A stretch of DNA of 64,000 nucleotides from Lingula anatina (GCA_051362555.1 CM120641.1:27100401-27164400); one strand, 5' to 3'; shown: positions 216 to 55,159, counted from the stretch's first letter. Notes: generated from the letters alone by a model not told the origin. Made by a program: numbers and translations.

Positions 216-435
216 ACAGAGTATAGCCATCAATGGAGGTCACGTGGTCTGAAGACAAGCTGAGATATCAGAATAAGAGCTATAACTCTTGTTTTTGTCG
301 TAAAACAGAATATATTATATTTCTATGAGTTATTCACAATGTTTTTATTGTGAATGTAGACCTCATACGAAGAGATATTATCCCTTAGTTTAATTGTTGA
401 TTGCTTCTATATTACAATTCCACAGAGGGCAAAAA

Positions 436-14729: not shown

Positions 14730-14762
<33 letters not shown>

Positions 14763-30000: not shown

Positions 30001-33000
30001 TCTGTGCAGTTGTCGTGAGATATTTGTCGCGACCACCATGCATGCCTGTTGATTGATTGTCTTTGTTAACACCAAATGAAAACTTGGCTTGTTATATAAC
30101 GAAATCAAATATTCCACATCCAAAAGTACACCAATTCTCATGAACTTGGACACTTTTTAAACAAGGTTTATTTAAAGTAGTAATAGATATCGTTAATTCT
30201 TAACACTGGACATCGTAATACGATTTTGGTTGTCAACAGCTGATTGTTTTAAAACGTCTTATAACACCAAAGGATGCAATTTGATCTTAAAGCTTAATCA
30301 GACACGAAGAACACGGCAGTGACTGTTCACAAATCGAGCAATTACAATCCAGCTGTAAAGATTAATCCAGTTAGTCTGGTACATTATTAGGGATGCTTAT
30401 CAGATTTCGGGGTCACAGGAAAGTTGTTGACAATTTAAACAAACTCAAGTAGCTATGGTAAATTTTGTAACAAGGCTTTTGATGAAAAGGATGGACTTTC
30501 ATTTAATTTTGATGGCAACAGAATCAAAGAAGGCTTAATGAGACTGAAAGGGAAAAAATAAACATCAATATTTTGATAAAATTAAAATATTAAAATAGCA
30601 TGTCACAACAATGTAATAAACGGACAATCATTTTTACGTACACGTACGGAACCAGAAAATCAAGAAGAAATTGGTTATTGGCAACTCTACCAGAAATTAA
30701 AAAAGATAAAATAAGCTTCAAGCTTTCGGTTCCGGGGGGGAAATAGGGAATGGATGTCCCTCATGCCTCCTGGATCCGCCTATATGATATATCATAAGCC
30801 CCATTAAAAAATTCTCAGTGTTTTCGACACGTGAGAATTGGAATGGAATCATTGAACTAAAACATAAAACAATACAGTTGCTGTAGTGTTCTGAAAGCAA
30901 ACCAAGTTAGAAAATTATTGTACTGTTTTTCTCTACAAACTGGATACCTATAAGGCAGTAAAGAACCGCTCGTAGCTTTGGTGTCGGCATTTTCAATAAC
31001 TTTGTAAGTAGTTTTGTCTTCACAAAAATTGAATAAAGGATTTGCTTTTGATTCCAGCTTGGAATCATTCGGACAGATGAAGAAGAATACCTTGTCCAGC
31101 CATTGCCTTCAAGATCTAAAGAGGGGCGACCTCACGTCCTTAAGAAGCTGCCTCACCCAAAAGGCAAGGCCACTGGGCATAAAGGTAGCCATTATACTGG
31201 ATATTTGACTGCCAAAGGTTAACTTTTAATTCGTTGCGAGTACATGTACATCATAATGTGCTAAGCTTTCTGTTTCTAATTTCCTGTTAGATTTACAAAG
31301 ACGTTGGTTGTTTAGCTGTTTCAGATGAAGTCAGTGACAAGCACCGAAGAAAGAAGAGAGCATACGGTGACAAATATCTGGGAATTATGCTGGTTGCCGA
31401 TCAAAGCGTCGTAGACTTCCATGGGAGTAAAAAGAAAGCGAAAACCTACCTACTAACGTTGATGAATATTGTAAGTTATTTGGAAATAATCACTTTCTTT
31501 AGACATTTTTAACTGAAAGTAATTGGCAAGGCGTCAGGGTTGTTGTACTGTAAGCAGAACAAGATCGTTTCCGGCGATATCAATATTAAAGTATTATGTT
31601 TTAAATAAAGGTTATGGTGTGCTTTTGTAAAAGATTACATTCGCACGTGCACGCACTCACTCATAGGAAGGAAACTCTGTGCTGAATTCTTCCGCTTTTT
31701 AGACGTACGATCTACTTTTTATATTGATTAAGTTGCAGTTGAGCGCAGTCAATTGACAGATCTAATATATTATGGAGTGGTGTCCTTTCACCCTGAAATG
31801 ACAACTCCAATTGTTTCTGATCCATGTAGGGCTTTGATTCCACCCTGGTTAGGGGGTGAGGCTACTCTTACCTAACAGTCCTGCTTTGCACTGGCTGAGT
31901 GGTGTAATACAATTGCATACCGTCGGTCAAAACGGTATACTTTTCGTAACACGTCTGCAATCACTGAGCCCCAGTTGGCCTTGTTCACAAACGTTAGTGC
32001 ATCAACCAGTGCACTGCAAATTATCTTAACAAGAAGCACAAATCTGCACTGAGATGCGTACAGACTTAACATTTATACAATTTACAAGTAATTTGTGAGG
32101 AATGCTCCTCATCTTCGTAAATCATATGCTTGTTTGGTTAGTGCAGGCTTCAGGGTAGTTGCCGTTTACTTGATAGATTTTTGGCAAAAGACCGAGACGT
32201 TTCTTGGATTTTTAAGTGCTGTTCAGTTTTTTATGTAATTCAAGGTTCCCCCAGAAAACACATTGTGCCTTGTAACTATGCTATATCCAGACGAAAGGCG
32301 AATAAGAAACAAAGCGAAGTTATAAGATCATGGAGGCCTTTGTAGGCAATGGCTCAGTTCAGAGAGACCTGAAACACGCCAAAGCCAAATTGTCCATCTC
32401 TAAGTTAAAAATCTCTTTTTTCATACTTATAACAGTATTCAAACTTGTAATTTTATATAAATTGTACAGGACCTTTCATTTATAGCTTTAAACCCAAGGT
32501 TTGCATTGCCATATGCCTCAGTTATCTTCAAAAGGAAAGTTGCAGTTCTGTATGAAGCATATCAAAATCCCAAACTGCTTTTTACATCCCTTTCTTTATC
32601 ATATGCTTTTCCAAAGGCTGGCATTACCGATGTTACTCCAGGCATAAACACATTTAAAAGTATAAGTTCATCTCAGTTTAACTTATCTTGTAAACATTGT
32701 TTTATCTCTATTTAGATGAACTCGGTTTACCGCCACAATACTTTGGGTGTGCGCATCAACGTCGTGGTGGCCAGGGTAGTGTTTCTGGATTCTTATCAGG
32801 TATGTATTAGCATGGTGATCACTCTATCCCTCTGCTCTAGAGCCGTCTACAGAGTAACACAGCGTATAAAAGAATCAAAAGCGCTCTGTTCTTTGGAACA
32901 AAAGTCTCTAGTTACGACCCAGACAAAATATACGTGACGCTTGGCGCCTTCTGTAATATTGGTCAATGTGCAGTTTTTTTTGTTCGTTTACTGTTTTAAC

Positions 33001-36000
33001 TGTCAATCGTTAAAGAAATTATGGTTGAAAAGATCATATTTGTGGTTGACCAAGCAAGAGACTTTACGGCTCTTGGTTCTTGCGGTTCTTGCACTTATAT
33101 GATCTCGAGGCAGATGTTCGGCAAATTTGTTGCAGCCTTAAACCTGGTTACGCTTGTTCCAACCTATTAACTCCACACAGTACATGGAGCAGTGGGTAAC
33201 TCTATTGTTTTGCATCGCGTTTCATAAAATTTAATAAAAAACTTAATCTTGAGAACACTTCATTTGGTATTCTTTCGTGCCCTGCCATTTAATTTTGTGT
33301 TTTCATAATTAAACGGAAAAGCAGTCAACACGAAATAATAACAGCGATTCTTATTACGCTGGTGTGTAAGATCAAACGCTTAAAAGATGAACAGACGTAA
33401 TAAGTAGTATTCTTTGTAATTCTAGGCTAATGCAATTCTTTACCGTGGTAACGCTAGACATACCCTGGACAGGTTTTGTAAGTGGGTTCAATTAAATCGT
33501 CCTCGGAATCCAAATGACCCAACGAACCATGATCACGCCATCTACTTGACAAGGGACAATTTAGGACCAGCCGGTGAGTATAAGTTGACGTTTTTCAAAA
33601 AAAAAAAATGGACATCCATCAATCGATTATTGCTTGAAATTGTTACCTTTCTGTAGATAAAGACCAGGGAATGTTTTCTTCACAGAGTTGTGCTTAAACA
33701 ATGAAAACTCTGCTTTCTGGAAATAGTCCAATGAAGGAATCGTATACTTATTGACACAAACCGATTGTTTTCATGTGAACACACTGAAATTCTACGAATT
33801 AATACAATTTGAAACGTTTAAAGGTTTGTTTAAATGTGTTTGCATGAGTTTGAACAGTGTAAGACCACAGGCATAGACTGTATGCATGGTAATTCAAGAG
33901 TTCTATTCACTTCCACATCCAGGGTACGCACCAGTAACAGGAATGTGCCAGCCAGACCGCAGTTGCGCAGTCACTAAAGATGATGGTCTGACGTCGGCTT
34001 TCGTCATGGCCCACGAGACGGGTCACGTGTGAGTAACCTTGTGCGACAGTGTGTGTCCTGCGATTGTTGCTATTATTGATTAAACTAATGTCGATTTATA
34101 ATGAGATGGTCAACCGTGTTGTCTGAATTTACCTGGATTATTTTTACTTGTGGCAAAATCAAGCATTATCTATGAGATGTAGGTTTAATCTTCTTCTTCA
34201 TCTCTTTTTTACTTTTTGCAAATAAGCAAATTGCAGGTTCTCTTACACAAGACCTCACGTTTGTTTTTACTTTTAGGTTTGGAATGCTGCACGATGGACA
34301 AGGAAACAACTGTGATGGCAGTGGAGAATCTATCATGGCACCCCTAGTGCAATCGACATTTTCAAGATACTACTGGTCCTCTTGCAGCGCGCACGAACTA
34401 AAACTTCGCTTTCAGTAAGTTATGAAACCGGCCTCTGATTCCTTTTTTCAATTTCACCGCTGTCTTCGTATGTTGTAATGAATGGATAAAACAGACTTTG
34501 AGGACTAAATGATCAGACCAAAATCAATATGTTTTAAATTTACACACCACAGGTTGCATATAATAGCGCACAATGATATCAACACTATCAGTGGGCCCTA
34601 TACGTAGATTTTGCGTGTTGCAATCGATATTTCATGATTCCTGACCAGTATCTTTTCTATCCTATAGCGAGTATACCTGCCTTGATGATAACCCGTTTAG
34701 GCCCCCGACGGCCAGCGTTGCTGACCCAATGGGCCAGAACTGGGATATGGATGAACAATGCAGGCAGGAGTTTGGAGATGGATACGGCCTTTGCAAAGCA
34801 GTAACTACCATATTCTACTAATATATATATACACGTAGTTTCTGAGTAATTGTGGTTTAGAATATTCCAAAGCAACGACTTACAAATATTACTAAAAATT
34901 TTTAAAAAATTTACAGGTAATGGTATATCAGTAAACATGAATGCTCATAGATTAGTTGTATCTCTTTGGAAACTTTAAAAGTATTTAATGCCGGCAGTAT
35001 TAAGATTTCAATAAACAGTAGCATTTTAACAACCTTATTACAGCGTTATATTTTGTGATCTGATTAGGGAATATTTTCCTCTTCCAGTTCCATCACGTCG
35101 ATCCGTGCCAGTATCTGTGGTGTGCTACACACGACAACCCCTTACTCTGTAAAACCAAGAAAGGACCACCGCTTCCAGGGACCGAATGCAAACCTGGCTA
35201 CGTGTGTATTGCTGTTTTGATGTTTTTCCATTAATAGTGTGTTAAGCATCAATCTCTGCCACAGAAAATCCTTAGTATTATTATTATTTTTTTTTTTTAG
35301 ATTCACCCAATCCTATTCACCACGGGTATATACGTGCATATATTTACTACGTGTATTACACGTGTGTATGCGTTTCCAAAATTGGTGGAATTATCGACCC
35401 GAAGAATCCTCAAAGCTCAAATTTGTCACCAGAAATGGACTTTTTGACCCATTTTGCCTCAGAACACATTTGTCCCTCTAGAGGTTTCCAAAAAAGTTAT
35501 TTACCCTGCCCTATTATTACAGAAGTTTTTTAGTCGTTTTAGAAATCTCAGATTAATACAAACATTTCTGAAGCGATCAAACTGGTAAATTTTGTATTTG
35601 CTTAATGATAAAGTCACTCAAGAATATAAACATTTTCTCTAGTTTTCTTTCTGAAATTGATATATCTTTTCTCTTTTTTCCCCATTTGCCATCAAAACAG
35701 TGGTGCATGAATGAACGTTGCGAGCCAAAAGGCACCAGCACGGTCAGTCGTATTGAGGATGTAGACATCCACGGCGCCTGGACCACGTGGGCGGAGTGGT
35801 CGTATTGCACACAGACCTGTGGCGGAGGGATACGTCTGAGGTCACGGTCATGTGACAATCCTGAGTAAGTACTGTTACTTTGACATGGAAATTGCCAAAT
35901 TTTACTCATTTACTATGCTTCATTCTTTTTAAATTTACGTATTTTGTGAAATTGGATTTTAATTGGTATATCATTTGATTGTTTCAGACCGGACAGAAAG

Positions 36001-37236
36001 TCAAAGGAATGTGAAGGCTTTGACACAGAGCACGAAATATGCAATCAAAATGTAAGTGTGTCGATATGTTGTTATTAAAGAAACCTGTTTTCAATATAAA
36101 TCGCACTCGAACCAATTAAAACGGGCTTGGTTCCAAAAAGATCAATTGAATTTATAGGAACAATTACTATATTTGAAACAATCTGGTTTTACTGGCCTTC
36201 TACAAATTGTTCTTTTATTTACTCTCCAGGAATGTGAAAAACTGGTAGACGTTCGTTCAGAGTTATGTAAGAAGAAAAGTCCGTGGCACAACAACAAACA
36301 CCATGCATGGGCGACATTCCAAAGCAAATACAGTACGAATTGCTTTTTACTATACTTAAACAACACCTTTCTAAATGTTATTAAAGTAATACAGAAAGTA
36401 TGTTATTCCAACGTCGCTAAACTATTTAAACGCGAACGAATAGTTATCATTTCTTTACTTTGTCTGTCATTTCAGAATCTAACCAGTGCAAACTGAATTG
36501 TGTATCTGTCGATTCTGGCGAGATCGTCGTCTCCGAAGATGTCCCAGATGGCACCCCATGTACCTATGAAACACCATACCACAGGTGTATTGATGGAGAG
36601 TGCAGGGTAGGGCCTTGCTTAACAACCTTTTTATTTAACGGCCTCTCTTCCTTTCAGTTGGCCATTCGTTGAATTTTATTAAAATTATTGACTTTTAAAA
36701 ATCTCCAACCAACCCCAGAGCCCAAATGCCCTTCAAAAATAAGTATGGGCGCTTTTCCGCGAGTTTGATTGTGAAAAAGAGTTAAAGGCTCTTTTGGATA
36801 ATTTATTTGTTTAATTTATTCAGGAATTTGGTTGTGACGGAATTCAAGGCTCCAAGAAAAAACCTGATAAGTGCGGTGTCTGCGAGGGTACGGGATCGGA
36901 CTGCAGAGACGTGAAAGGCAAATACAAGGAAACACCAAAAGATGGTAAGTTGATCTCAGATCCCCAAACACTAGTGAGAAAGGACTAGTTTTTATATTTT
37001 TGTATTATTATTATTATTATTACTTTTGTAGCACGTGCAGGCCGTAGGTTGAGAGAAGTGCTTGGTGGGGGCGGGGGAGGGTGGAAGGTTATGTAAGTAG
37101 TACCTACATGTACTTGTGCAACCGGTATTACTCATCTGACTGAAGGGGAAGTAAGAGGCTTTTGGTTGACTGGAAGAAAGGAAAAATTTAATACTTTTTA
37201 AAGATACCAAAATATTTTCAAAAATCTTGAAACTTT

Positions 37237-37276
<40 letters not shown>

Positions 37277-40200
37277 TGTGGGGGGCGGGGCGGGCGGGGG
37301 GAGCACTTGTCCTCTACTCCCTCACAGTACATGTATACGGTATGGATACGGTTACGGTATGTATACGGTTCTGAGATGTTTAATTTGAATATCATTTCAT
37401 TGCCTTACAGGGTACAGGACTGTTGTAAAATTACCTAAAGGATCTAGGAACATCGAGATCAAACGAAGAGTATATTCGGCACACTTTCTTGGTAAGAAGT
37501 TAGCAGTCTATTCTTGAAATCGAGTTGCCATGGAGACAAAATAACAATACAAACCAGTGACAATCACACTGATGACATGGCTTCGGTATTATTTCAGTAA
37601 TATTTGTACAGTCGATTGAAACAGTGCCAAATTGAAATTCTCAACATTGTTTTTTAAATTAACGACATCAGTAACTGAGAAGTTTTATTTAACGGACCAT
37701 GTTTCTGATTTTAGCTCTAAAAGACGGTAAAACGGGTAAATATTTGCTCAACGGAAAGAAACGGCAGGAGTATTCTACCAAAGATATTATAGCCTATGGC
37801 TCTAGGCTTGTTTACACTAACGACGCACGTACCGAGAGCATTAAGGGCACCGGACCGCTTGGAGAAGAATTTTTTGTCATGGTGAGTTTTCTGCTTTGTA
37901 AACGTGTTAATTGTTTGAGCTTGATGCACGGATATCGTGCATGAATAATATGCATTTAACTACCAACAAAAGATATTTATTAGTGTTGCAGGAGTTTTTA
38001 AAAATAAAATTCTATCAGTTAATTCTACGCGACGTAGTAATGTAAAATGCTGAATGCCGAAAATTAAGTAAGTATTTAGTCGAACGATTGTTATATTTAC
38101 AAATATAAAATCATGACTCACCTTTAATAAATAATCACAGTATTTAATCTCTAAATAGGTGTATCCTATGCACTCTAATACCCCCACCCCCGTGGACATA
38201 GATTATCAGTTTACGGTGTCCAAAGAGGAACAAACAAACAAAATATCGGGGACCGTGTCAAAACGATATCGTTGGAAGTTTGATCATTGGACGGAATGTT
38301 CCGAGGAATGCGGAGGAGGTAAGCATGGTGGGTCCCCAGTGGGTGAGATCCATATTGTGACAGTATTACAAGGAATATATTTGAAACGTACGCAGAGACA
38401 AGTAGATGAGGTTGCCATGTAATGGTATTCTAACAGAAGTCCTCGGCCCGGTTACAAAAATGCATATAAAGGAATATAACCACTCAGGATTATTTCAATA
38501 ATTATTTTTATTCTTAAGAGAACCGTAGAAAATAAACACGTATTAAAGGGGTATCGGTGGGGGTCAAGAAGGGAGTGGGCGTGTCGCACCCTTTAAAAAA
38601 TTACTTTTTTCTAGGGACTACCCACATTGAGTATCAGTGCAGAGACGTCTATGATAATTTGAAAGCCGATGCTGAAAAATGTGCCGGCGTTCAAAAACCT
38701 GATGATTACAGAAGGGAATGCAACAAATCGCCATGTGTGGATGCAAGGTGGGCCCCAATATTTTTATACTCTTTTTTTATCTTTTTTTTTATTCGGTAGA
38801 AGTATAGCATTTGCCCAGTGGAGGGCACAATAAGCACATTCCCTTTTCCTAGCATCTTAGGCACCACTTTCCCCCTTCTTCCTCTCCCCAAAAGCCGAAA
38901 GAGACAAAACCCAGTAATTTATTTACCCTTGTGGCATACGTATTGTAGTCATCGTCTACTGCTTTATATCTGCATAGCATACTTTATCCTTGCGTACTCC
39001 TAGCAGAAGCCTAATTCAGCTAGGGTAATAGGTCTTTTTACAGGTTCTTCTGTGCCATTTTGGTACTGATGTTCCGAAAGTGTGTTACTAAATTAGAAGC
39101 TTACTAGAATTGCTTTACTTCTACTCATCATTGGCATCGTCAGTCTCGAAAGACTATGGGTTTGCGCTTTGGGATGAATCCTGTGTCCTGATGTTGTACT
39201 TAAGCTGAAAAGTCCAGTGGCAGTCTTTGGCACCGTGTGGTCTTTTTAAGTTTGATATTGTACTCATACATTTATACTGTGCTTGGGAATGTAGCCTTCA
39301 ATGTCAGTTTGCTTTCAAAGGCAGCCAGGTCTTTTGATTCAGATTACTTCCAAGCAGATCTGAAAGCACTGTCCTCCAATGACACCACGAATAATAAATA
39401 CTTTTTAAAAAAATGGCACACATAAATTTCAGAAAAGCCCAATATGCGGTCGAAATATTTTTCATTGCAATTATACAATGACCTGAATATTGCTTTCTTA
39501 CAGGTGGGAAGCGTCTCCGTGGGAGGGATGTTCCGCCACATGCGGCAACTCAGGAACGCAAGTCAGAATTGTTAGCTGCACGAAGAACGAAGGAGAAAAA
39601 GTAAAAGAAGTCAGCCCACATTTTTGCAAGAAATCGCGCAAACCAGAACGGGAGAAGCCCTGCAACAGGAGGGCTTGCCCAGGAGAATGGTCAACTGAAG
39701 AGTGGTCTAAGGTAGGTATGGTACATACACAGTTGGTTCAAGATCTTCTAGGTTGAAACAAACCCCCTCCAATATGTGTTAGAAATAGGGGTTTTGAGTT
39801 TAAGTGTAGGCGATGCCATATTTTAGTCACAACTTATAATGGGTGGGAGAACTGAGGAGGCCTGAACTTTAGATGTTGAAACATCTTGAAGGCTGTCAGT
39901 AATGATTCCGTGAATTTTACTTTTTCGTACTTCATGCTCATAGTATCGGCACAAACATGTTTCTAGGGATTCATAGCTTCACAATGAATCTTAAAGAAAA
40001 GTTGATTAATTGCCCTTCTGTAGACTTACTGCTTTCAGTCTCTCTTTTTTCCCTCTGGCGATACTGCCATTATGAAGAGACAGAGGGTGTTTTACCAACC
40101 CAGTGTTTTATCCCTTGGATATGCTTCGCTTGATCCAATGAAAAATGACAAAGGGAAACTTTGTCGGTCTTTACTTCACTCTTCAATGGCGATATTTGCG

Positions 40201-41266
40201 TTCACTCTCTAATTAAATTGCCGTCTTTTATATGTTGATCGGATTTTTTAGAATTGGGATGTAAATGGCGCATTCTGGTTTATCATTTTTTTTTCAATTA
40301 ATACTCCAGTGCTCCTCAACCTGTGATACGGGTGTACAAACTCGACGAGTATACTGTGATACTAAAGACTCTAGAGGCGTTGAGAACTGTAACGGTAGGC
40401 GACCCCCGGACACCAAAATTTGCCACCGAAAACCATGTCCAGGTAAGCGTCAGGTGTGAGAGAAATCGTCCTGCAATAAAATATTTTTTCTTGAATTGTT
40501 CTATAAACATGCTCTGAAATTAATGTTTGGGTGTTAGAAATCACCTAATTACTTCAGATAATTTGAAAGTAACATTTTGTTGAGCTTGTTTTGTTTTGTT
40601 GTTTTTTTTTCTTCTTTTTATGGTAATCAGAATTGGTTAAAACAAATATGTAGTCTGTAAACGAGCAAGCGTTATCCACGATCCTCCCTTTCATGGGATA
40701 TTACGTCACCAGACAGGCACATCTGTCTAATTGCTAGGGTCTTGCCTATTGATATTATGTTATATATGTTATATTTGTGCTTGCAAGGAATAAATATGGA
40801 TTTACAAGTATATTCTCATGCTATAGTGATAAAACTTGGCGGTGTAAATGGCTTCTATATATTTATCATCTATTGTTTTCTTACATATTTGAATATTTAA
40901 TAATTCATAACAAGGATTCATTGTGCTGAACATGTGTGGACACATAGGTGTCTTCCTCCGAAACTATAAAAAAGTGCTTTTAGCAAATATTAGACTTAGG
41001 CAACATGAAAAACTACCAACATAAATAATGAAACTGCATGTTTAACGAAACCCAATAGAAGCACCTGAGGAGAAAGCACCTGTTCTAAAGTACACATATA
41101 GAAGACAATAGATTTTTAACACTTCTCTTTCTCTATAGGCTGCACCGGGGATAAGTCTTCTTTCTGTGCCACAAAGCCCTTTAAAGCACGCTACTGCGCC
41201 CTTCCAGGCTTCAAGAGACTCTGCTGTAGAACGTGCAATAACCTGGCGAATGAAACAAGGAACTAA
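24056..41266 (+). CDS. ADAMTS3: ADAMTS2/3/14-like metalloprotease, short isoform (prodomain, M12B catalytic, disintegrin-like, TSR1, Cys-rich, spacer, TSR2-4, PLAC-1), ~1119 aa; exons 24056-24382, 25349-25385, 27828-28225, 31058-31184, ~31316-31470, 32716-32799, 33426-33573, 33923-34028, 34277-34414, 34668-34800, 35088-35201, 35701-35864, 35988-36051, 36230-36332, 36476-36606, 36824-36944, 37411-37491, 37715-37881, 38159-38318, 38615-38747, 39504-39711, 40310-40442, 41139-41266
   Basis: Prodomain [16 protein letters not shown]; furin sites RKRS and RRKKR; [24 protein letters not shown] and zinc motif [18 protein letters not shown] with Met-turn SIMAPLV, diagnostic of the ADAMTS2/3/14 clade; [18 protein letters not shown]; [13 protein letters not shown]...CCRTC then stop. 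The start codon and the 31316 acceptor are less certain. The symbol denotes the clade, not strict orthology. Confidence 0.88.
37239..37274. repeat. (TG)n microsatellite
   Basis: Uninterrupted tg run; similar runs at ~55162-55195 and ~61106-61124. Confidence 0.9.
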
Positions 41267-42714
41267 TCATAGGAACACTTCTTCTGGGAACTAATCATCT
41301 TGTACATGTAGTTTTGCAACAGCTTGTAATGCACTCTACTTCTTCATATATAAATACATATATTTGTATACGTATATACCTTTAAAAATCTGGAACTGTG
41401 CCTTACAAACTAGTCTCTTCTCTTTGTGCTTAGCTAACAATGACTGCATAATAAACTGTCATGCACGCCTGGATCTGTGTCAATTGGAATATGCTCGGCG
41501 TTTCTCGAAAAAAAGGTCGAGGTGTTCCCATTGAATCTGTGTATTGTTTGTACTTGTATTGTACATGTACATTGTGATGTTATGACGATTGTGACTGAAT
41601 AACAAGAAGAAACTGCCTTTGTCTTTCACAAAGCATCTGTGATTAGATTGAATGTATTTTTAAGTTGGGTTTGTGATAAATATTTAAAAAGGTGTGGATT
41701 TTGCTGGTGGTTTTTTAAAATAACTACTTAAGTTTTAACATGGGCCTGAAATGAAAGCAATGGGAAAGATATGCCCTGTATTAAACAGAACTGAATGAAC
41801 TGAAATAAAAAAGAGAATTAAAACGGTCAAATAATGCAACGACCTAAATATTGGAGTATTCAATAGGGTCTTTACTCATCATTGGTGGCGGCAGAATACA
41901 TTTCATTATAGAGATCAGATTCGAAGTTCTTATGCAGTACTCGATAGGCATAATTTAATAATTAGTGTTTTATGCTAGCAGTTATTAAGGAAAGCAGTTT
42001 TAAGATGCTAGTTTTCCCCTTCAAGTTAATCGTGCAATGCTGCATTTTTGTACACTTGGTTACTATGTGTATGACAATAACAACATTAGTTTGCTGAGGA
42101 CTCTGAGGGCCGTGTAGGTATTACGTGAGTAGATGTTTATCTCTATCATATGTGATCTCACCCAAAGTATTGAGAGAAAAAGTGTTGCGTTAAGAAAAAA
42201 TGCAACAGAATAGCTTACGTTTGTTCACGGTTTCAGGAAACAAATCTGTTTTTGAACTGTTATTTTAGTCAACGTTTTAGACACGTTTGATGTTTACGTT
42301 AAAATGTTTTACGTATATTGCCAATCTGTCAATAAATAACAATTTCAATAATTTTTGTGTTATTGCAATTATAACAAGCGACATTTCAGCGTAGGCAGGA
42401 CAAGATCGGTATGTTTTTGACATTATACACTGGAAAAAATTGGTGGGCGTTAAATTGATTTGAACGACTCGGATGTTTTATCATATTTATCATAAAAATC
42501 ATTCTGTAGATATTCCTGATGTTGTGGCTTAAGAAACACAAAACCCTTTGTTTTGCTTCCGCTTTGTGTGTGATTTGCTAGAAGCTAAATAAAAAACAAT
42601 ACCACTACTAGGATGTGCAAAGGCAATGAGTCATATTGTAAATTAGTATTCGATAGCATTAGAAACACCGTAAGAAACACAAGTAAGATGTAGTTTTGGA
42701 CAATTTACATCTAG

Positions 42715-45700
42715 GCACGCTCATCCCGTCGACGAAGGAAGATAATTTGATTGGTGAGGACCATACGCCTGTCAACTTGCCCGACAGCAATGTCGTCAAT
42801 AGTGTCCTTAATGACAGGTATACTTGGCGCTTCGACGAGTGGACCGAGTGCACCCGATCGTGTGGAACTGGTACGTGACCCATTGTATCTCTATAGTATC
42901 TTCTACAAATTTGCATTACCTTTAACGTGTATGTTGACACTGTTATTGAAATCCTACATGTGTTATCACATTTTTTTTATAATTTCTCAAAAATCATAAG
43001 GGATTGCGCTGGATATAAAAATTTATTTTCGTTTGTTAGATTATGATTTTGATGTCTGCTACAGGTGGGGTTTAATTCTGGAAGGCGTTGATTAAACAAA
43101 TCATAGTGGTGTAATTCGCGGGAAAGGAGAATTGAAGTGGACGAATAGGCAATTCGATTGTATTGTGTTCACGTGCATGCGTTTTGCTTTTCATATTCAG
43201 GTACTCAACATATAGTTTACCTGTGTAAAGATAAGTACTACCAAAAGGCTGTGGTTGAATCGCACTGCTCTCATCTAGAAAAACCGGACCCAGATTTGCG
43301 GCCTTGCAACCAGTTTGGGTGTCCGGAGACACGGTAGGTACATGTATTCTCGAAAGGTGTAAAAAAATCAAGACGATTGCCTCAGTTACAGAACTGTACA
43401 TATAAGTTTGCAAGTTTTCAAGTTATACCAGCAGCAGTAGTTGCTCGTCTAGCCAATGACCGCCAGCACTGAGGCAGTGTAATTGTAGGTCGCCTTCCAT
43501 AGGATGCTTTATGCAATCAACATATACATGTAAGTTTTGTGAGGGACAAATACGGTATCTACTCTAAAATCACCCAAATTACCAGTAGCTGATATAGCTG
43601 CTGTCCGATTACCTTTTTTTTTTGAAAGTCAGAAGCAATCAGGGACTACTTACACATGCGAGCCGCACGACACATATAGTTAAATATTTTAAGATTAGTG
43701 CGTGGTAGACTAGAAAAATTCACTTACAATGATTATAATCACGTTTTCATGATTAGAAATACGATTAGGAATACGAGTTATTTGTATAAATATTTACATC
43801 TCACTTCATATGGGGGATTGATTAAACTGGGACTAGGGGCGCATCACTCCCTTGGATCCTTTAACAGTGAATAAATCTGGGGGAATTGTAAGTGCTCGTA
43901 CTGCCTCACCTTAGTTTGGTAACCCTGCAATCTTGACAAACTCATATCACACGTATATTGCATATGTAAGTCCTGAGATATACATCGTAACGTTAAAACA
44001 GTGATATTTTTCGTTATAATTTTTTTTTTTTTCATATTAATGGCATTTCTTTATTTCTTTTGTTTTCTTTAACCATTAGGTGGATCGCGGGAAACTGGAG
44101 CGAGTGTACGAAAACTTGTGGTAGGGGATTGCAATCAAGACCTTTAGCCTGTCTCATCAGTCATGAGGGGGAGGATGTCGCTACCAGTCATGCTATGTGC
44201 ATTGACATAGAACCGCCGGAGACAATTCGGGAATGCAATCGTGAGATTCCGTGTCCGACCCCGACGACGACCACCACCACCTTACCTCCACCCACCCACC
44301 CGCCCATGGTGACCAGCACAGAGTATTTCATCTACAGGTGCAACCTCGTTCCAGCCTCGCCTCGCATTCCTGTCTATAGGCCTATTTTTAATAATGATAA
44401 TAATAATAATAAACTTTATTTAAAGACGGTAAAACATGTTAAGTGCACACACTTATCTTACACATGGGCCATTGCAAATAACTTCCTGTTTCTGCAACTT
44501 TTCTGTTTTTATTACATTTTCGTCAGTTAAAAAACATCATAACGTAAAAAATGAAAGAAAAAATGTTATTATTATTTTATTCGTGTCGATAGATTCTCTA
44601 TGTAACAAATGCCCTACTTATTGTTTTAGATGGGTCAGTAGAGGCTGGAGCCCATGCAGCACCACGTGCGGAGAGGGCATAGAGACAAAGTTTGTCCTCT
44701 GTGTGAAGGTTTCTTCGCAAGAAGAGATAGAGGTTGACAGCGACCTGTGTGAACCAGGCGAAAAGCCGTCCGCGGAGGAGAGGCCATGCTCCATTGCTCC
44801 GTGTGTGGAACCAGTGAAGAATATCTATCTGTAAGTGTTGTGGTGACTGACAGATGTTGGTTAACATGGAAAATCAGCGGGCCTTGTTTTTGTCTTTAAT
44901 GTAAGGGTTCTATTAAGAAGTATGTCTATTACATGTATGTGGAAGTACGTCTGTCAACAGATGGCTGAATTGCAGTGAGTTTTCCAGAACGTAATGTTAT
45001 GGATCAAGTTGTATAAGGGCAGATATGATAATTATTTAATGAGAAAAACATGTCATATGCACAAGTAATGAAGAGATAAGGGGTGTTTTTTTCTTTTTCA
45101 ATTATTGAGAGTACAGGTTCAGCACCAGCTTGTTCACCTTTTTGATTTTATGCACAAGCAACAAGTCGTCATGCATCTGTAATTCATACCAATCTTTGAT
45201 TTGGTAAAAAATGAAATAACAATAAAGGGCACCAAGTAAACAACAAAGTCATAACTCATCATATATACAAATTCATGTACAAAAATATATAGCTTATTGC
45301 AGCTTATATACTACATTGCGTATATTTGATTAAAATGATGTTAATTATACAATGTTTAAACAATGGAGTTTAACACTTAATCATATAACAATTTTGGTTT
45401 AAGTTAAACGCAGCACGATTTTTTTATTTCATATGCAGTTGGAAGGTAGGGGAATGGGAGGCATGTTCTGTCACCTGCGGAGATGGAGGCGTGCAGGATA
45501 GGCAAGTCAACTGCTGGCAGATAGACGGGCGGAGTGGAACTGAGACGCAAACTAACCCCTTTAACTGCGACTCGGATGACGAGCCATCTTCACGCCAAGA
45601 CTGCCACCTATCGCCTTGTCCGATCAACTACACTTATAGGTTTCTTTTCTTGTTTTTTAACTTGAATGAAACGGTCTCTACTTTAAATATGCTTTAATTA

Positions 45701-48700
45701 GGGAGGTCAGGTCACACCGCTCACGCGGTCGAAAACGGGAAAAAAATCTAACCTCGCTGTTTGTTTTCCATCATAACTTCCAAGATTTTGGTCCTATGAT
45801 AAATATGAAAATATATTTTAAAAGTGCATTGAATGGGCTTTCTTACAATATGTGTAACAATGCATTATTTCTCTGTTGTAAGCCCCTAGCCACAAAAATG
45901 CTGTGAGGAATCGCTGGTGATTTCACTTCCTCGTTTGGTTCCCACTATTTACGAATTTTGCTCAACATGCGCGTTTCGCGCCATTTTTCTAAAAGCTCCG
46001 TACGGCGTCCCGGATGTTTTTTCCTCGTATTTGGACACATATTCATGAGGAGAATGAAACAAGCGTTCGAGTGTGGGGTTACAGAAGTTTACTCAACGGA
46101 AAACAGCAACCAAAACTAGCTTGTAAAGTTTTTAATTGTGTTTTAGAGTTAGAATAACGAATTTCTGAAATTTCTGTAACCCCTAGCTACCTAAATTTTT
46201 AAACTAATTCTCGGTTCAAATCAGTTTTTTATTTATCATTTTTTGGTAAGATAGAGCCGTAACAGCCGTTTGAAAATCAGTGACTTTGATCTTACCGCAA
46301 ACAAAATGGCGAACGCACCAAGCTGCTCTGCTTATAAAACAGCAACTTCACTTTCAGTACCGAAAGAAGATCAAGATATTAGAATATCTAATCAGAAAAT
46401 CTTTGAATTGTTCACGAAACCCAAGGATATTGATAAAACGTGTGCAATTCAAGAATATACAGTTTATTTTATTTTTCAAACAAATTACGTACGATGTTCA
46501 GGCCCGTAGCCAGGGGGGGGGGGTTCGAAAGAACTGCCCTTTTTGCTGGGAAAAGGTCCACTCTGGGTACAATTTGATCTATGTACTTGATGATTTTATG
46601 GTAAAAGGTCTACTTTTTCAGAAAAGGAACCCCCCTCTTAAATTGCTGGCTACAGGCCTGATGTTGATGGGCCTAATGATTGAACCTTCGGACTATTGCT
46701 ACGGCCCCATTTCACCTTTGAACTCGTTAGTGATTATAAAAAGGGGAATCTTAATTAAAATCATGGAGATATGAAAAACTCTAGAATGGTAAATGACAGT
46801 CAAACAAAGTGAACAAAAGTAGTATCTATTTATTTTTGCTTAACAAAAATAAAAAAGGAAAATTCCTAAAACTGCCATTACGTTATGGCAGTCTGTCCAA
46901 ATAATCTGGCTGGTTTTTGTATTACCTAGCTGCTATGATGTCGAATATCAATTAAATTTTTTTGGTAAAATGATAACTTTCCAAAATCGGATATTACTTA
47001 TTTTCATCGTGCATTCTGGCAATTTTCACTAGTTAAACCTTAAAATTGTATATGCAGTTGTCATTGTAATATTGGTTGCCATGGCAACAGTGACATGGTA
47101 TTTGTTTACTTTTTAACTTAAATTCATAAATTGAGTACAAATAGTGTTTCCCACTTCATAATCAGTTAAAAATTTGATTATAATGTTTAAAAAATAATTC
47201 AAACTGTTACCATAGCAACAGCTATCATAATGACTATTTCCATAGCAACAGATACATTACAAGCCATTATTTTTGTTTTTAGTGATGGCACATTTTTTAG
47301 AATCATTTTCATCCAAAAGTAGCCTTTGGGCAGTGATGCTGAAGCTTTAAGGTTGAAAAATAAAAAAAATAGTATTGATCGCTATTGATATTTAGCAACG
47401 GTTGCCATGGAAATAATGAATAAATTACAGAAAATGATATCTTGTCAGATTCTTCTTGGCAACTTTCCAGAAAATTTCAAATTGGATATTTTACTCCATT
47501 CAAAAGTTATGCCAATTTTGTTTAATTGATTAGGCAATTAGGTGACACTTTTGGCTTCTACTGTTACATATGCTTGCATATAAGACTTTTTCAAAATTCT
47601 GTGGCCGACTAGCATTCTTGAAAATTTAATAACTTTTGATTGGCTTGCTTGATTTTCAAAAATTAAAATGTTTTGGAAAGCTCATGAATTTCTCTATGAA
47701 ATAAGATCACTTTGGCTGATATTTATGTTACTATCAAAGTTGACCTGACCTCCCTACTTTAATGAATATTCACTCTCAGATAGATTTAAAAGAAAAAAAG
47801 CAGTACTGTTCGAAGTAGTGGGATTTAAGGATTACGTTCTACGTTACCACTTTCCTACTAATTTCACCATTTTGCAAAAATATATAGGCCTACCTACCGG
47901 TACATATGCATTTATTCATATTCATTTGCATATACTCGCCTCATCTGAAACTAAACAATTCTTATCATTTCAATTTTTCTCGTTTTCTTGAAGTTGGGAC
48001 ATCGGCGATTGGCAATCTTGCTCCGCCTCGTGTGGAGACGATGGAATTCAAACAAGAAAAATACTCTGCAAACGAAGAGACATGGAAAGTGGCGAAGAAA
48101 TACATATTGACGATGTGTCACGTTGTTCTGAAACAAGCAAACCAGACCAAGTTCAAGACTGCAATAGAAACCCTTGCCCGGTTAATTATGAATACAGGTG
48201 CGCATTACTGCTACTGTACAGTTGTCCATAAAAGCAGGTGTCTACATATTAAACATATATTTGCTGTTTTTCATAATGAACTGTGATCGAATCATTTTGA
48301 GATGTGATTTGGTGCAATATTCCAACATTATGTTATCTGCTAATTATGAATTATTGAACCGTATTATCATTAACAGTTAACGTTTTGCTAGAGCTTATTT
48401 GCTTAACACATTTAACAATATAGATTAATCAGTGAGCTAGGATTTCAACTTTCAACTCGCTACTGGGACACCATACTCACCTAAGAAATCCATGGAAAGC
48501 TGACTTAGTATCATTAAATCAAAGTCGCCTACATTTTATTAGATAAATACAATAGTCAACACTGTTATTATTCAAGAACCATGATAATCTCCGTATTATA
48601 TTGGGCATTATATTGCATTTAGAAACGGCAATTTCCAACTTATTTACCAACGAACCAGGCCCGTAGCCAGCAAGGGAAGGGGAGTCTTTCTCTAAAAAAA

Positions 48701-51700
48701 ATGGGAACCATGAAGCCTAGATCCAAATTTACACAGAGCAGCCCTTTTTTCTGACAAAAAGGGCGGATCGTTTGAACACCGGAAACCCCACCCCCACCCC
48801 CATCCCTCTCCCTGGCTACGCGCCTGCAAACATAGTGTACACAGCACAGCGTGTACCTGGCTCCCTTAATCTCAGCTTGTGCTTGTGCTTCAGTTGGGCC
48901 ACGGAGTCGTGGTCCAGGTGTTCTCAGTCTTGCGGAGACAGCGGAGTTCAGAATCGCCACATTCATTGTCTACGTTTAAACACTGAAACCGGCCGAGAGT
49001 CGATCACAGACAACATATATTGCAATGGTAACGAGAAGCCAGACGCTACGCGAGCTTGTAATCGTAGGCGCTGCCCCTACGCCTTGTACGTCTAGCTTTT
49101 TTTTGTATTTTCTATAATATTCTACATGTATATACATTTATATGCTGCGATTAACTTTGTTGAATTTGACCAAAGATACGTTTTAATCGAACAGAATTAG
49201 GATTAAATGAATACGAATATCTCATGCAACACTGATAATGATTAAACTGCACTTTAAATGAACTAGAAGAGTGTAATATAAAAACAAAAAATAAGTGAAT
49301 TAATGATTGATCTGTGATCATTTTATTACAACCTTGGTCCACCCTTTAAAATCATTAATCGATTATTAATTATGTCAATTACTGTGGCGTCACATTTGCA
49401 GATGGTCCTACGGAGACTGGTCTCGCTGCTCAGCGTCGTGTGGAGACACGGGCGTTTACGAAAGGCGCGTTTTCTGTGAGAGAGTGGATCCGAGCACTGG
49501 GAAACGAACTGAGGTGGACATTACGGACTGTAACGACCAAACCAAACCAGTGGCCAAACAGCCGTGTAATAGAATCAACTGCCCGAGGTCCACCACGCCA
49601 TTAACCACAACAACAGAAATGCCCATCTCCTATAAGTAAGGTGTTTTGGGGGTTCAAATAACACTACATGTTTACGCTTAGAAGTATAGTTTCTTTAATT
49701 GTGTTTTAATCATGATCATGAAATATTGTCAAATATTATGCAGTTTGTCGGTTTTTTTGGCAAAAGTGTGAATGTAGGTTGGTATGGTAAGGAAAAGACG
49801 CAGAAAGGGATCAAGTACAGGTAGTAGCCCTCGAACAAGTAGGCCTGTTTAATTTATTTATACATATCAGCAACAGATTTAGATTAGTTATAACGAAATT
49901 AATAATAATAATGATAATAATATATCAATTAGATGGAAAACCAAAACCTGGAGTGACTGTTCTGCGACATGTGGCAACAACGGTTTACAAGAGCGTTTCG
50001 TGAACTGTGTTCAGGTTTACGGCGGACAGGAAGTCGTCACCAGGGCGGACTCGTGCGTAGCGGAGGAGAAACCTGAAGATAAACAGCCGTGCAACCGTGT
50101 GGCATGCCCGGCACCATGGAGAACCACCAAGTGGTCCCAGGTATGCCATTTTTTAACCCAGGGGTACCCGATAACGCTTACTGAAGCCCCCTTTACACTG
50201 GACGGCGTCCATTCTGCGTCCGTAGTACGGCTCCGTTTGAGATTTAAAAAATACTCTGTGCTGACAACTGGTCAATCATTTAGCATTCATTCTGCAACCA
50301 AAGCAATGCTTATGCCTCCCACCTACGACACAGCGATGCCAGTTTCGTATTTGTACAAAGGACGCAGAAAGGATACCGTCCATTGTAAAGTTTTTATTTA
50401 TTTATTTATATTTATTTATTTATTTATTTTGTGCACGGACGGATTGCTATTTTGCACTGAATGAAATGTTGGGGAGGGGAGCCATGATATGATTCGGCAA
50501 GGTAGTTAGAGAATTTTCCTGTGCACCCTGGATGGACATATAATGTTACATATTACTGGTAGCGTATTAAAACCTGGTTCCACATCAAAACAGCTCGTAT
50601 TCTGCAAAACATACAGGCAAATTACAGGAAAACCCTGGCAATGAACTCTGGCGACCAGTGTTTCTTAGCCAGGGACCTTGATGCTGTCGAGAAAAATACA
50701 GTTAACGACCTTTTCTGACGTATTTGGTTGTTTTCCAGTAATTTTCCAGGAATTTCCAATTTTCAAGTACATGTAGATACCAGATGTTATTGGTGACAAA
50801 CATATAGCTTTTAACACTACCTATCGTGTTTTTTAAGTGCAATTATTGTCGATACAGTGGCAATAACAATTTTGAAGAAGGTCAATCAAAAAGACATCAA
50901 AATTCTTCATTCTCGAGTTTTTTAGACTATGGTATTCGTTGGCTATTGTGCCACAGAATACCATGTAGTAAAAGTACACTCAATGACATGTTTATAAGAG
51001 CCAAGCTCCCTGGGAAGCTTGTCTAACATTGATAATCTCATCCCACATAAATTCTTTAATTGTGCCCAATAAATTATATTTATGTATACACGTTTGTGTA
51101 AACTTGATGTCTAATTTTCTTTATATACATATAATTACAGTTAACCATTAGTGAAAGCACAGCCCCATATTTCAAATCCAAACTTATTTAATTTCATGCA
51201 CACAGTGTTCGGTAACTTGTGGTACCGGGAAGCAAACACGAGACGTGTTCTGTAACATCCCTACACCAAATTATGGAATACCGTACTCCTGCTTTGGAAA
51301 GAAACCACCTATTTCCAAACAGTGCCAACTGGAGTCGTGTGACGGTGAGTGAAGATTTTGTCAAAATTGTAGTACAAATCACAGATTGTGTTCCAGTAGG
51401 CCCTACGTCTCACAAATGCCGATGTTTGTTACAATGTACCAGCAGAGCATACATGCATGTATGTTTATAAGACAAATATCACAGTTTAAAAATAAATAGA
51501 TTATAAAAGAGTTTTTCTTGACTTGGAGACTTGATAACCGGAGTCATACACAACGTTTTGATACGCCATCTGTGAACGAGCACAGGTGTCAAACATCTGC
51601 GCATGAGCGTAAAGCGCGCTCTCTGAAATAAACAATTTAATTTAATTTTGGTTGATTTGATTTAATTTGTTTTCTGGTGTCGTTTGGAAGAGTATATTGG

Positions 51701-52841
51701 AAATTTTTGTTGAATGTGCCGGTGTAACGAAACTGAGGATCCGTGTAACACGAAATCCGCCCTCCATTTAGTTATAATGGTTAGGGTTAGCCTGACCTAA
51801 GTGGGTCAACATCCAGGGCGAGGCTTACCTGTACAAATAAAGAGGAAGCGGATTTTCTGTCATGTTACACCGGTATGAGTTAAAATCTAAATCCACCAGA
51901 CTTTGTTAAAAATGACCTTTTTTTCTGTATTGTATCGGGATTCCCTTTGTATTTTTAGTGATGAATGTTATCCCACGGGAAATACCCCTTCCCTCACTCT
52001 AAATAAAGAAAATATTCTCTGTGCGGGGGTAGGGGGAGGGGTAGGTGATGAAAAATTTATTTCAAAATGCATTTAAATCGTAAGAAGGTTAAAATAAGGG
52101 TTATGCAAATGAGAAAACCTTACTGTTTGGGTGAAATTAACCGAAATACATGTAACATGTTGAACTTCCACTTCCTCGTTTTAATTGATAGTTGTAATTA
52201 CTCGAAAGCGAGGCATAGCTGTCAACAATATGTAACCTCGTAAAAAATGGAATTTTGTTATGAAGCTCATAGCTTGCGGGGATAAAAAAACTCCTCGTTT
52301 GTTATTGGAATCTACAATAATAATAAATAAAATAACACACTATAAAAATTCTTCTGTTTGGCCCATTATTTAACTTAACTGATATTTTGTAGAAATTACA
52401 GGCTCAAACACGCCATAATCGTCTGCGCGATCTCGTTCACATATCAGCGCACGACATTTGGCTCCTGTGCTACATTCAAGGCCAACCGAGGTTCACAAAT
52501 GGTGGATCAAAACTATAGACTCTCGTGATCTAGTCCCTAAGGCAAGAATGCATACAGTGTTACTTTTATCATAATATGTAGAGATAATGAGAATCCCTTT
52601 TCATATTTGTAGTGGATTAATTTCCCAGCAATAACAGTTTATGAACTGGTAAATTGCGCGATCTTTATACAGTGTTTGCTTTTTTTTAGCTGCTCCAACA
52701 ACACCGAAGCCACCATGTAACGGGGACAAGTCTAAATTCTTCTGCAAGCTGGTAACGGCAAGAGCAAAGGAGCATTGTAGATTGCAGGCATATTATAATA
52801 TGTGCTGTGCATCCTGTGACAAATTTGAAAGAACACACTGA
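42715..52841 (+). CDS. ADAMTS long-isoform C-terminal extension: 9 extra TSR repeats plus a second PLAC; exons 42715-42870, 43201-43333, 44080-44337, 44630-44830, 45439-45639, 47994-48197, 48894-49085, 49402-49635, 49933-50140, 51206-51344, 52690-52841
   Basis: Each exon encodes intact WxxxxWxxCSxxCG...R...C...C TSR sequence with GT-AG sites and matching phases. The first exon is phase 1, compatible with the donor at 40442 (skipping PLAC-1). The last exon encodes PLAC CNGDKSKFFC...CCASC then stop. Confidence 0.85.
45699..47756. mobile_element. ~2.06-kb non-autonomous DNA transposon (hAT-like termini) in an ADAMTS intron
   Basis: Perfect 16-bp TIR tagggaggtcaggtca / tgacctgacctcccta; direct repeat ctttaat on both flanks; no transposase ORF recognised. 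Confidence 0.8.
46499..46660. mobile_element. Short MITE (CAGGCCCGTAGCCAG family) nested in the 2-kb element
   Basis: TIR caggcccgtagccag / ctggctacaggcctg flanked by an atgtt direct repeat; other copies at ~18798-18930 (partial), 48656-48826 and ~53945-54004 (partial). Confidence 0.75.
48656..48826. mobile_element. Short MITE (CAGGCCCGTAGCCAG family)
   Basis: caggcccgtagccag ... ctggctacgcgcctg; flanks cgaac/caaac; internal similarity to the 18798 copy (tagatcaaattta / tagatccaaattta). Confidence 0.72.
50191..50390. mobile_element. Small palindromic MITE remnant
   Basis: ctttacactggacggcgtccattctgcgtcc versus ggacgcagaaaggataccgtccattgtaaag (31-bp imperfect inverted repeat). Confidence 0.6.
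51719..51873. mobile_element. Small MITE with CCGGTGTAAC termini and internal ggttagggttag
   Basis: ccggtgtaac ... gttacaccgg inverted ends; aaatccgc/gcggattt sub-terminal inverted repeat. Confidence 0.55.
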
Positions 52842-55159
52842 ATCATATGCCAGTAGCATAAGGCACTGAGCTTAACTAAGCTAATTTATAACACAGCATT
52901 GCCAGAAGCTTACGGCGTCAGTTATTTTCTATGTGGTCTTTTACTTTCAAGATATAGATGTTTATTTTTTACCATCGAGTTGGTTCATATATATACATGG
53001 TTGAGTAGGAATGATTAGTTGTTTAAAATATGCAAAAGGGAATTGTGTGGAATAAGAATTCCTTTCCGTCTATATGTGCTTTTCACAATAAAGGCATGCT
53101 AAAGGTATTTAATTGGTACGTTCAACAATATACTGGCATTCTGCTGTTAATTAAATGGCACATTATGTCCAAAATAGCTGCCATGGAAACCCAAGCCACT
53201 GTTTTGTAATGGACAGGGTTATACACATGTAAAAAGCATGCCTCTCAATTCCCTCCCTCGCGTTTGTTTTAATGCTGGAATGTTTAATTGGACATTGTTG
53301 CAAACCACAGACACAAAGACGGTATTTTACCAAAGTTTTATTTCTAAAACGAGCACAGATTAACATAAATGAATATTTATACGAAAAGATTTTAAAACTA
53401 TAATACGGATATGAATAAACAGGTCTTACGTCATGGAGATGAACAAAGATTTGCTGATCATATTTACTTTTGAGACCCCATAAAGAATGGTTCTCTAAAT
53501 GTACTGTCCTCTGCATTTGTCACTGATAACAGATTTCGAAAGATCTTTTCGGGTATAAAAAAACACGAAGCGATCTCTAATTACGACCTTATGCAAGATT
53601 TTACTTAGCGTCGGCTTATAATAGAAAATACAACATATGTTCTAGCGATATCAGATAAACTATGTGTACGCAACATGTAAAATCTAATCATCTGGCATTA
53701 TCTACTTAGTGCATCTCAAACACTTGTTAAATATGTTGATGATCTACTTGATGGCATCCGTTTTACATGAGATGACAACGCAATTTCATATTACAACAAA
53801 GACACTATACTATTTGCCACATTTGTGCATTAAAACCAATTTGATAATTGCTTTAAAATAAGTAGTATGATATGAAAACTTACTATTCTTAGCTGTAAAA
53901 GACCGAACGGTTCCTGTTTTACAAAAGACCTATAGCCTGAAAGCATTTGGTCAAAAAGAAAAGGCCCAATTTCCAGAAAAAGAACCCCCTTGGCTACAGG
54001 GCTGAACATATTCGGGAGTATGAATTATTGCGCCTGATCTATAACACGAGCGCATTTTCTGGGTATGCCAAATTTTGGGCTATATATATATTTTTTTGTT
54101 TGTTTGTGTGTGTGTGTGAAATCGACCATTGGGTACATCGACTTAGTCAAAAGAACGCGTCACAAGAGGCCAGGAGAGAAGAAACAAGATCAGCCAATAC
54201 AGGAAGTGACAATATAGCACAATTCAAAACCAATGGATAACGAGCTCTGCCTGCAACTAATCTGTTAGCAACAGACACTATTATACAATTTTTGAGCATT
54301 TATATCCATGCCAGCTAGTAATTACTCAAAAGGTTGCGACTGCTGCATTAAGATACATGCAATCAGTGCGTCAGCACCAGTACATCCAGAATGATCAATC
54401 AATATTTATCTGTTAGAGAGACCCATCCCAACAAATAAACGAGAGCTTGTGTTGCTTAATTTCCTCCATTCCTTACTTTACTCAATTTATGTGATTATTT
54501 ATTAACCAGTAATGTTTATCTGGATTTGTGGAAAGGTTTTCCTGGACTCGTTTCAATCCTATGAAATGTGGCCGATTTTGTGCTGAAAGCAAACACTATC
54601 GTTTAAAAGGTAACAAGTGCATAAATGTATAATATTAAACTATTTGTAATTCTCAATTTATCATACTTCAGGCTTTTTTATTTGCGAAAATGGAATTATG
54701 GTCAAGACTATGGCCGGGAGCTTTTAATGCTGACAGGTGGCAAAGAATAAAATCATTCGGGACTATATATAATACGATAATAATGCTTTTAGGTATAGTG
54801 TTTTGAATGAAGGAATAGATAAGGAAGTCTATAGATTGGGAAATGTATCTAAAATAAGGCATTGGGTAATGTATCAAGAAGGGAAATGTATCTTAATCAC
54901 AATTAAATTTTTGGGGAAGTTTGCACCAAAATTTCGGCCCTCATGCTTTATGTCTTTGTTATACTCATATATAAACTACAGGAGAGTGTAAAAATAAACT
55001 CCAGTTTAGAATGAGTCCCCTGCAAACCTGGTAAGATAAAAATCTGGATTAGACTTGCAAGATTGTTTTACTTGTTATATGTATCTTCACGTAATAGTTC
55101 TAGCCGCAATACTGAATGACCTAGAAAAAACGTTTGGGGTCTATAAAGCGATTATGCCT

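Follow-up and report, generated by a model that had tools for sequence, protein, structure and literature searches.

In ADAMTS enzymes it is mostly the ancillary tail that determines specificity and location. Vertebrate descriptions of the procollagen N-proteinase clade, ADAMTS2/3/14, give it an invariable set of three C-terminal thrombospondin repeats (TSRs) followed by one PLAC domain. Alternative splicing has been reported for ADAMTS2, 4, 6, 7, 9, 13 and 17 (PMC8275829); the short form of ADAMTS2, which ends in intron 10 and is without the ancillary tail, has no detectable activity (PMC12362006, PMC3712723). In the same superfamily one C. elegans gene, Punctin/MADD-4, yields long and short isoforms with distinct roles, but it is non-catalytic, uses alternative promoters and has a common PLAC end (PMC13142758). 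We analysed a 64,000-nucleotide stretch of the genome of the brachiopod Lingula anatina (GCA_051362555.1 CM120641.1:27100401-27164400), called the window below, with coordinates counted from its first letter. It contains an ADAMTS2/3/14 gene, on the plus strand, in which the exon completing TSR4 splices to either of two PLAC-encoding endings. We hold with good confidence that the gene has predicted 4-TSR and 13-TSR enzymes as its products and that the second tail is likely an old tandem duplication of its own 3' exons. The short isoform shares the three C-terminal TSRs and one PLAC of the vertebrate enzymes (PMC4349717); unlike them, Lingula has an alternative ending, with nine additional TSRs and a PLAC of its own. 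Unlike the short form of ADAMTS2, both Lingula forms end in a full PLAC.

Alternative last exons of the Lingula gene

The evidence for the two endings comes from raw RNA reads of the same species, taken from six of nine listed runs (6–26% of each run). The donor at 40442 closes the last shared exon (40310..40442, the rest of TSR4). It is joined to acceptor 41139 in 53 reads (8, 2, 42 and 1 in runs X7, X4, X8 and X2, respectively) and to acceptor 42715 in 77 reads (16, 8, 53 and 0 in the same runs), the short splice making up 53 of the 130 reads from this donor. Both junctions had been predicted from the DNA, as had a single locus with alternative PLAC last exons and products of about 1119 and 1769 residues; the junction reads bear this out, and the catalytic domain falls in the ADAMTS2/3/14 clade, as described below. 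The original prediction had allowed that one PLAC exon might never be transcribed, but both last exons carry junction reads. Indeed, the junction leading into the distal one (51344-52690) is present in four of four runs, with 100, 10, 26 and 11 reads.

Ten of the 11 long-form junctions are among those listed from the reads. The remaining one, 49635-49933, is not among the listed rows; both of its exons have read depth, and the junction is present in RefSeq isoforms X1 and X2. Intron bin 40622-40993 has zero depth in four of four runs, and in stranded runs the exon reads lie on the strand expected of a plus-strand transcript. Exon 48894-49085 behaves as a cassette: 13 of 67 reads leave it out, which yields the 12-TSR form known as RefSeq isoform X2. 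Run X5 has zero depth over 40840-42167 yet 2.1–2.9 on the long-exon bins, at a likeness cut-off of 92% and with alleles of the untranslated region (UTR) that are divergent; the pattern no more than hints at regulation of last-exon choice.

All introns of both models are GT-AG, the frame is open, and the proteins of 1119 and 1769 aa each have one terminal stop. Eighteen shared 5' coding exons (24056..37881; a GT-AG model agreeing with RefSeq isoform X1, with Pfam matches and motifs) encode the prodomain, furin site, metalloprotease, disintegrin-like domain, TSR1, Cys-rich domain and spacer; reads were aligned from 34200 onward, and junctions within this part are read-supported from 34800 on. 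Reads and model agree on the shared exons that follow: 38159..38318 (end of the spacer and first half of TSR2, phase 0/1), 38615..38747 (second half of TSR2, 133 nt, phase 1/2) and 39504..39711 (TSR3 and the start of TSR4, 208 nt, phase 2/0), and then the exon with the branching donor. The short form ends in PLAC1, the coding part of the proximal last exon (41139..41266; junction reads and PLAC match). The long form continues through 42715..42870 (linker and first half of TSR5; junction reads and model), a copy of the TSR2 exon that starts in phase 1, not 0, and 43201..43333 (second half of TSR5, TSR2-type; reads and profiles). Junction reads and phases then define six symmetric phase-2/2 exons of one repeat each, TSR6 to TSR11, within 44080..49635 (44080-44337, 44630-44830, 45439-45639, 47994-48197, 48894-49085 and 49402-49635). 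A copy of the TSR3 exon follows at 49933..50140 (TSR12 and the start of TSR13; model, profiles and reads), then the TSR4-type rest of TSR13 at 51206..51344 (reads and profiles) and PLAC2, the coding part of the distal last exon, at 52690..52841 (junction reads and PLAC match). Thr/Pro-rich linkers follow TSR6 and TSR11. Translation of the window placed every peptide quoted in the original prediction where it had been reported.

The short form thus has four TSRs and PLAC1, the layout of the clade, and the long form has 13 TSRs and PLAC2, with 13 TSP1_ADAMTS stretches in the Pfam scan; its 12 C-terminal TSRs depart from the three-TSR plan. Pfam PLAC matches in both terminal exons do not reach the curated threshold of 26.4 bits (21.3 and 16.3). 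A PLAC profile built from 10 orthologues and run on six frames of the window gave two strong hits only (E 2.7e-11 and 6.3e-7; next 0.21).

The gene is the ADAMTS2/3/14 orthologue of L. anatina. Our long-form model differs from RefSeq XP_013383069.1 (ADAMTS3 isoform X1) at 20 of 1769 residues, and a protein search with shared exon 39505-39711 returned a single match, L. anatina ADAMTS3 isoform X2. We built a quick, midpoint-rooted catalytic-domain tree of 65 rows, picked from 150 matches by near-full catalytic coverage plus seven other proteins, with fragments excluded; no row is named vertebrate ADAMTS2 or ADAMTS13. It splits a 38-row ADAMTS2/3/14 clade from 27 other-subfamily rows at a Shimodaira–Hasegawa-like approximate likelihood ratio test (SH-aLRT) value of 100, and places the Lingula protein among lophotrochozoan rows within that clade, which also holds rows named vertebrate ADAMTS3 and ADAMTS14. 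The protease features of the family are present: Pfam propeptide and Reprolysin (M12B) matches, a furin site (RKKR, residue 308) and HETGHVFGMLHD at residue 456, which fits HExxHxxGxxHD. Pfam also matches the disintegrin-like domain (PF17771), central TSR (PF00090), Cys-rich domain (PF19236) and spacer (PF05986). The ESM Atlas returned generic ADAMTS clusters only.

At the N-terminus, the most hydrophobic 15-mer begins at residue 90 and methionines stand at 1, 45 and 59, in 5' exons that lie upstream of the part to which reads were aligned. About 90 residues (window 24056-24382) precede this signal-like segment; translation may instead begin at methionine 45 or 59, or the segment may serve as a signal anchor.

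The RefSeq cluster has two members, isoform X1 (XP_013383069.1, 1769 aa) and isoform X2 (XP_013383070.1, 1705 aa), which correspond to the full long form and to the version without the cassette exon. The PLAC1-ending 1119-aa form was found neither in this cluster nor in the protein-collection searches within whose range it fell. Because it lay within range yet was not returned, the result suggests that the short isoform is unannotated in public Lingula proteins.

Both transcripts extend further than predicted at their 3' ends. The short-form 3' UTR (41267..42350) carries reads to at least 42176, past AATAAA signals at 41450 and 41804 with no step down at either; in run X8 depth is 45 at 41370, 41 at 42044 and 25 at 42176. 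Because depth persists past both signals and the depth of bin 42482-42853 is explained by exon 42715 alone, the short form probably ends just after AATAAA 42331. The long-form 3' UTR (52842..53435) reaches at least 53345 (depth 43 in run X1), past AATAAA 53087, with near-zero depth beyond 53456, and we infer an end near AATAAA 53414. Since read depth runs on beyond each of the signals at 41450, 41804 and 53087, none of them was accepted as a main 3' end; the original prediction, which had put the ends at 41450-41810 and about 53090, did not hold here.

A further RNA arises within the long-form exons. Runs X1 and X2, from one study, show strong plus-strand expression of the last three exons only (50084-53435). 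Run X2 has 85 reads over 50140-51206 and none on the listed upstream long-form junctions, and six of its 28 molecules end at 50084, inside exon 49933-50140. In run X1 depth is 9 at 50074, 173 at 51254, 73 at 52724 and 33 at 52855; plain 3' bias was rejected as the source of the peak, as depth falls from 51254 toward the 3' end. No in-frame AUG lies ahead of the PLAC in this RNA, just short out-of-frame reading frames of 28 and 45 codons. It is likely a transcript from its own internal promoter, and possibly non-coding.

Origin of the second tail and its relatives

For four of the five upstream exons, one downstream exon clearly scores highest: 38159/42715 scores 92 (next 51), 38615/43201 scores 78 (next 59), 39504/49933 scores 179 (next 130) and 41139/52690 scores 68 (next 27). 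Two of the pairs have equal lengths (133/133 and 208/208), and the end phases match. The predicted exon-by-exon mirror stands in these lengths, in the phases and in four pairs; the fifth pair, 40310/51206, is tied. The two sets of copies are 29–43% identical in protein, with no DNA match longer than 26 bases and no intron similarity; this level of identity, with no longer DNA match, argues for an old copy rather than a haplotype artefact.

The individual repeats tell the same ancestry. Profiles of nine orthologous TSRs per position, with Lingula excluded, assign TSR5 to TSR2 (73.7 bits), TSR8 to TSR12 to TSR3 and TSR13 to TSR4 (60.3 bits). When set against 133 clade TSRs, 311 outgroup TSRs and the remaining Lingula TSRs, TSR2 and TSR5 each score highest with the other (159 versus 136 for the next); in the same clade and outgroup comparison TSR12 is nearest to TSR3s and TSR13 to TSR4s. 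Cysteine spacings are identical between TSR2 and TSR5 and between TSR3 and TSR12, and all 11 long-only exons have an open frame and full cysteine sets. TSR8 to TSR11 are best matched by each other, consistent with a local expansion of symmetric phase-2/2 exons. PLAC2, which keeps GDKS-x-FC, scores 72 with PLAC1, up to 77 with clade PLACs (median 52, n=37) and up to 67 with outgroup PLACs (median 39.5, n=20), a small margin over the best outgroup.

Judged from these comparisons, the downstream block is likely an ancient duplicate of this gene's TSR2-TSR3-TSR4-PLAC exons, enlarged by further single-TSR exons. We propose that these exons were copied downstream in tandem, that the copied first exon may then have come to start in phase 1, which would put it in frame with the TSR4 donor, and that symmetric phase-2/2 TSR exons would have multiplied within the copy.

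How common are such tails? A set of 151 proteins gave 146 that passed an ADAMTS filter, 137 of them, mostly vertebrate, with three C-terminal TSRs and one PLAC. For the clade itself, 41 proteins less three that were not anchored and less Lingula left 37 to score; regular-expression TSR counts were off by at least one in some rows, and profile results and sequence reading were preferred on conflict. Eight of the 37 carry four or more C-terminal TSRs (Tubulanus, Antedon, XP_076458373.1, Lymnaea, Mizuhopecten, Sinanodonta, Mercenaria and one protein with putative MAM domains), and for this reason we regard the three-TSR layout as a vertebrate-centred feature. One 2050-aa clade member with a long TSR array has two inserts that resemble what we take to be MAM domains. 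A search of the clade for a double PLAC, which had been suggested with the original prediction, found two PLACs in one chain in 2 of the 37, XP_076458373.1 and a fish-like ADAMTS14, both gene or transcript models. On these sequences, Lingula is not alone in having a long arm or a doubled PLAC. No other clade member compared was found to use an entire copied tail as an alternative chain of last exons, the isoforms of the others being judged from models.

The closest parallel is XP_076458373.1, a RefSeq ADAMTS2-like protein that groups with gastropod rows. Its own 3' cassette is also duplicated (TSR2-3-4-PLAC-TSR3-4-PLAC), but the two copies have diverged less, with 84 of 158 aligned residues identical, and the model places them in a single chain. 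This younger TSR3-TSR4-PLAC duplication is a candidate for the same alternative-last-exon arrangement. The Mercenaria, Sinanodonta, Mizuhopecten, Lymnaea, Tubulanus and Antedon orthologues resemble the Lingula long form in having 4–10 C-terminal TSRs, mostly TSR3-type; unlike Lingula, these bivalve, snail, nemertean and crinoid proteins have at most one PLAC in available models, with a coexisting canonical form not in evidence. Long TSR arrays are also found in ADAMTS9/20 (GON-1) and in ADAMTS7/12, the latter with mucin-like inserts (PMC4448532), but these belong to other clades. The Pfam scan of the long form gave no match to the GON domain (PF08685), and ADAMTS9/20 is a separate clade in the tree. 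ADAMTS7-named rows likewise fall in another clade, and the Lingula protein has just two short Thr/Pro linkers and no large mucin domain.

The original prediction had noted that a common architecture would lessen its novelty, and this is in part the case: RefSeq already contains the long form, invertebrate orthologues often have expanded TSR arrays, and there are two other two-PLAC members. Our literature search, outside which lay most subscription journals and supplements, found no paper on the gene or on a pair of alternative PLAC exons; the gene could be listed in supplements of the Lingula genome paper or of phylogeny papers.

Competing readings and other features of the window

Several points weigh against reading the locus as two coexisting enzymes, one with an old copy of the tail. 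Short reads show single junctions and not complete transcripts, the short/long ratio is not significantly different among runs X7, X4 and X8 (p = 0.25), none of the loose read ends listed bears poly(A), and the signal-like segment begins only at model residue 90. As to the copy, TSR4 exon 40310 scores 92 with 51206, tied with exon 48894, so that the pair is not uniquely best, and TSR6 and TSR7 are not assignable by profile to any TSR type. The TSR tree that the original prediction had called for (68 rows, ADAMTS9 TSRs subsampled one in three) gave little resolution and was not used; TSR5, TSR12 and TSR13 are related to TSR2, TSR3 and TSR4 by pairwise scores and profiles. An 11-residue Cys2-Cys3 spacing was rejected as a mark of the clade: it occurs in 0 of 62 ADAMTS9 TSRs but in 15 of 144 TSRs of other subfamilies, and marks position.

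Four other explanations deserve weight in very different measure. Both transcripts may be real and their tails functionally near-equivalent, the TSR array being a tolerated by-product of exon duplication, a process that apparently recurs in invertebrate orthologues. This is possible, though we lean against it: TSR number varies widely among orthologues, the three runs show no significant ratio difference and symmetric TSR exons are prone to duplication (PMC549037), but all 11 long-only exons keep their frame and cysteines despite lost intron similarity, and run X5 hints at regulation. The block might instead have been acquired from a different ADAMTS or ADAMTS-like gene, such as an ADAMTS7/12-type tail that has mucin linkers, which would suit the Thr/Pro-rich linkers between TSR blocks, the roughly equal scores of TSR6 and TSR7 with clade and outgroup TSRs, and the Cys2-Cys3 spacing shared with outgroups. 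We think this improbable, given that TSR5 is best matched by the gene's own TSR2, TSR12 and TSR13 by clade TSR3 and TSR4, and PLAC2 by clade PLACs, and that exon lengths and phases mirror those upstream.

The strong transcript of the last three exons in runs X1 and X2 could be taken as the mark of a separate ADAMTS-like gene with its own promoter, the long model being a read-through or annotation fusion. A downstream gene with its own first exon is, however, rejected by the 77 reads joining 40442 to 42715, more than lead to PLAC1; downstream junction counts are of similar size, and the internal transcript has no in-frame AUG before its PLAC, which makes this account very unlikely. That the duplication is an assembly artefact, two haplotypes set in tandem, is scarcely credible, and nothing was found in its favour: the copies are too divergent in protein and DNA, a RefSeq record 20 residues different has the same long form, and reads splice through both blocks.

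Other features of the window lie mostly outside the gene. Pieces of a TRAF-family gene occupy 394-9591 on the plus strand (RING 436-705, TRAF MATH domain 9010-9588), and a tandem array at 6385-8544 repeats near-identical translations on the minus strand. Claudin/PMP22-like exons (14809-15108 and 17122-17412, within 14242-19423, plus strand) probably belong to two tandem genes. Short interspersed or inverted repeats in introns at 46500-46660, 48655-48810, 50184-50390 and 51719-51873 attract many partly matching reads on both strands. A GC-richer segment with a purine-rich minus-strand reading lies at 55500-55930, and 57940-58630 holds a repeat-like element that is duplicated internally.

Predicted roles of the two enzymes

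With two coexisting forms, the proximal terminal exon would compete with the distal exon chain to set the C-terminus, by splicing that is observed and polyadenylation that we infer. Use of acceptor 41139 would lead to polyadenylation near 42350; skipping it would give the long form. Both forms are predicted to be secreted zinc proteases, activated by furin and alike in their catalytic, spacer and TSR1–4 modules, and by orthology would probably cut the same kinds of substrate, fibrillar procollagen N-propeptides. The original prediction had the ancillary arm switched between forms, but both keep TSR1–4 and the long form adds to the arm instead.

The long form would trade a short basic 41-residue PLAC exon for an arm of 692 residues, acidic on balance, in which TSR2- and TSR4-type repeats occur a second time (net charge +10 for the short tail, −13 for the long tail and −28 for residues 1078–1461). 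In ADAMTS2, TSR2 and TSR4 are required for full activity, TSR2 probably keeps the protein close to cells, and activity is held back by the C-terminal domain (PMC12362006). Because of these domain roles, the extra TSR2- and TSR4-type repeats and the change of charge, what most likely sets the long form apart would be its matrix anchoring, its reach and its autoregulation, and not its catalysis. Lingula shells contain collagen; since the shell proteome, as described in PMC4595640, is without COLFI-type fibrillar collagens, a shell role for the enzyme is speculation.

A broader scenario is doubtful, and we offer it as conjecture. The ancestral procollagen N-proteinase would be kept as one isoform, and a tissue-regulated last-exon switch would give a second enzyme, bound through its long acidic TSR arm to a different matrix, for instance the collagen/calcium-phosphate shell. 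Copying of the tail while the first PLAC stayed in place would be a recurring route to long arms in invertebrate ADAMTS2/3/14, with the gastropod-like two-PLAC model as a younger case, and the internally started third RNA from the last three exons would have its own role.

The locus does not reveal a new kind of enzyme or of regulation, and the public Lingula protein set apparently misses the canonical isoform. What it offers is a natural matched pair, one catalytic unit with two complete tails, with which to probe the extra TSRs and the position of the PLAC, and an example of how a domain array can grow by a simple path while the ancestral product is kept.

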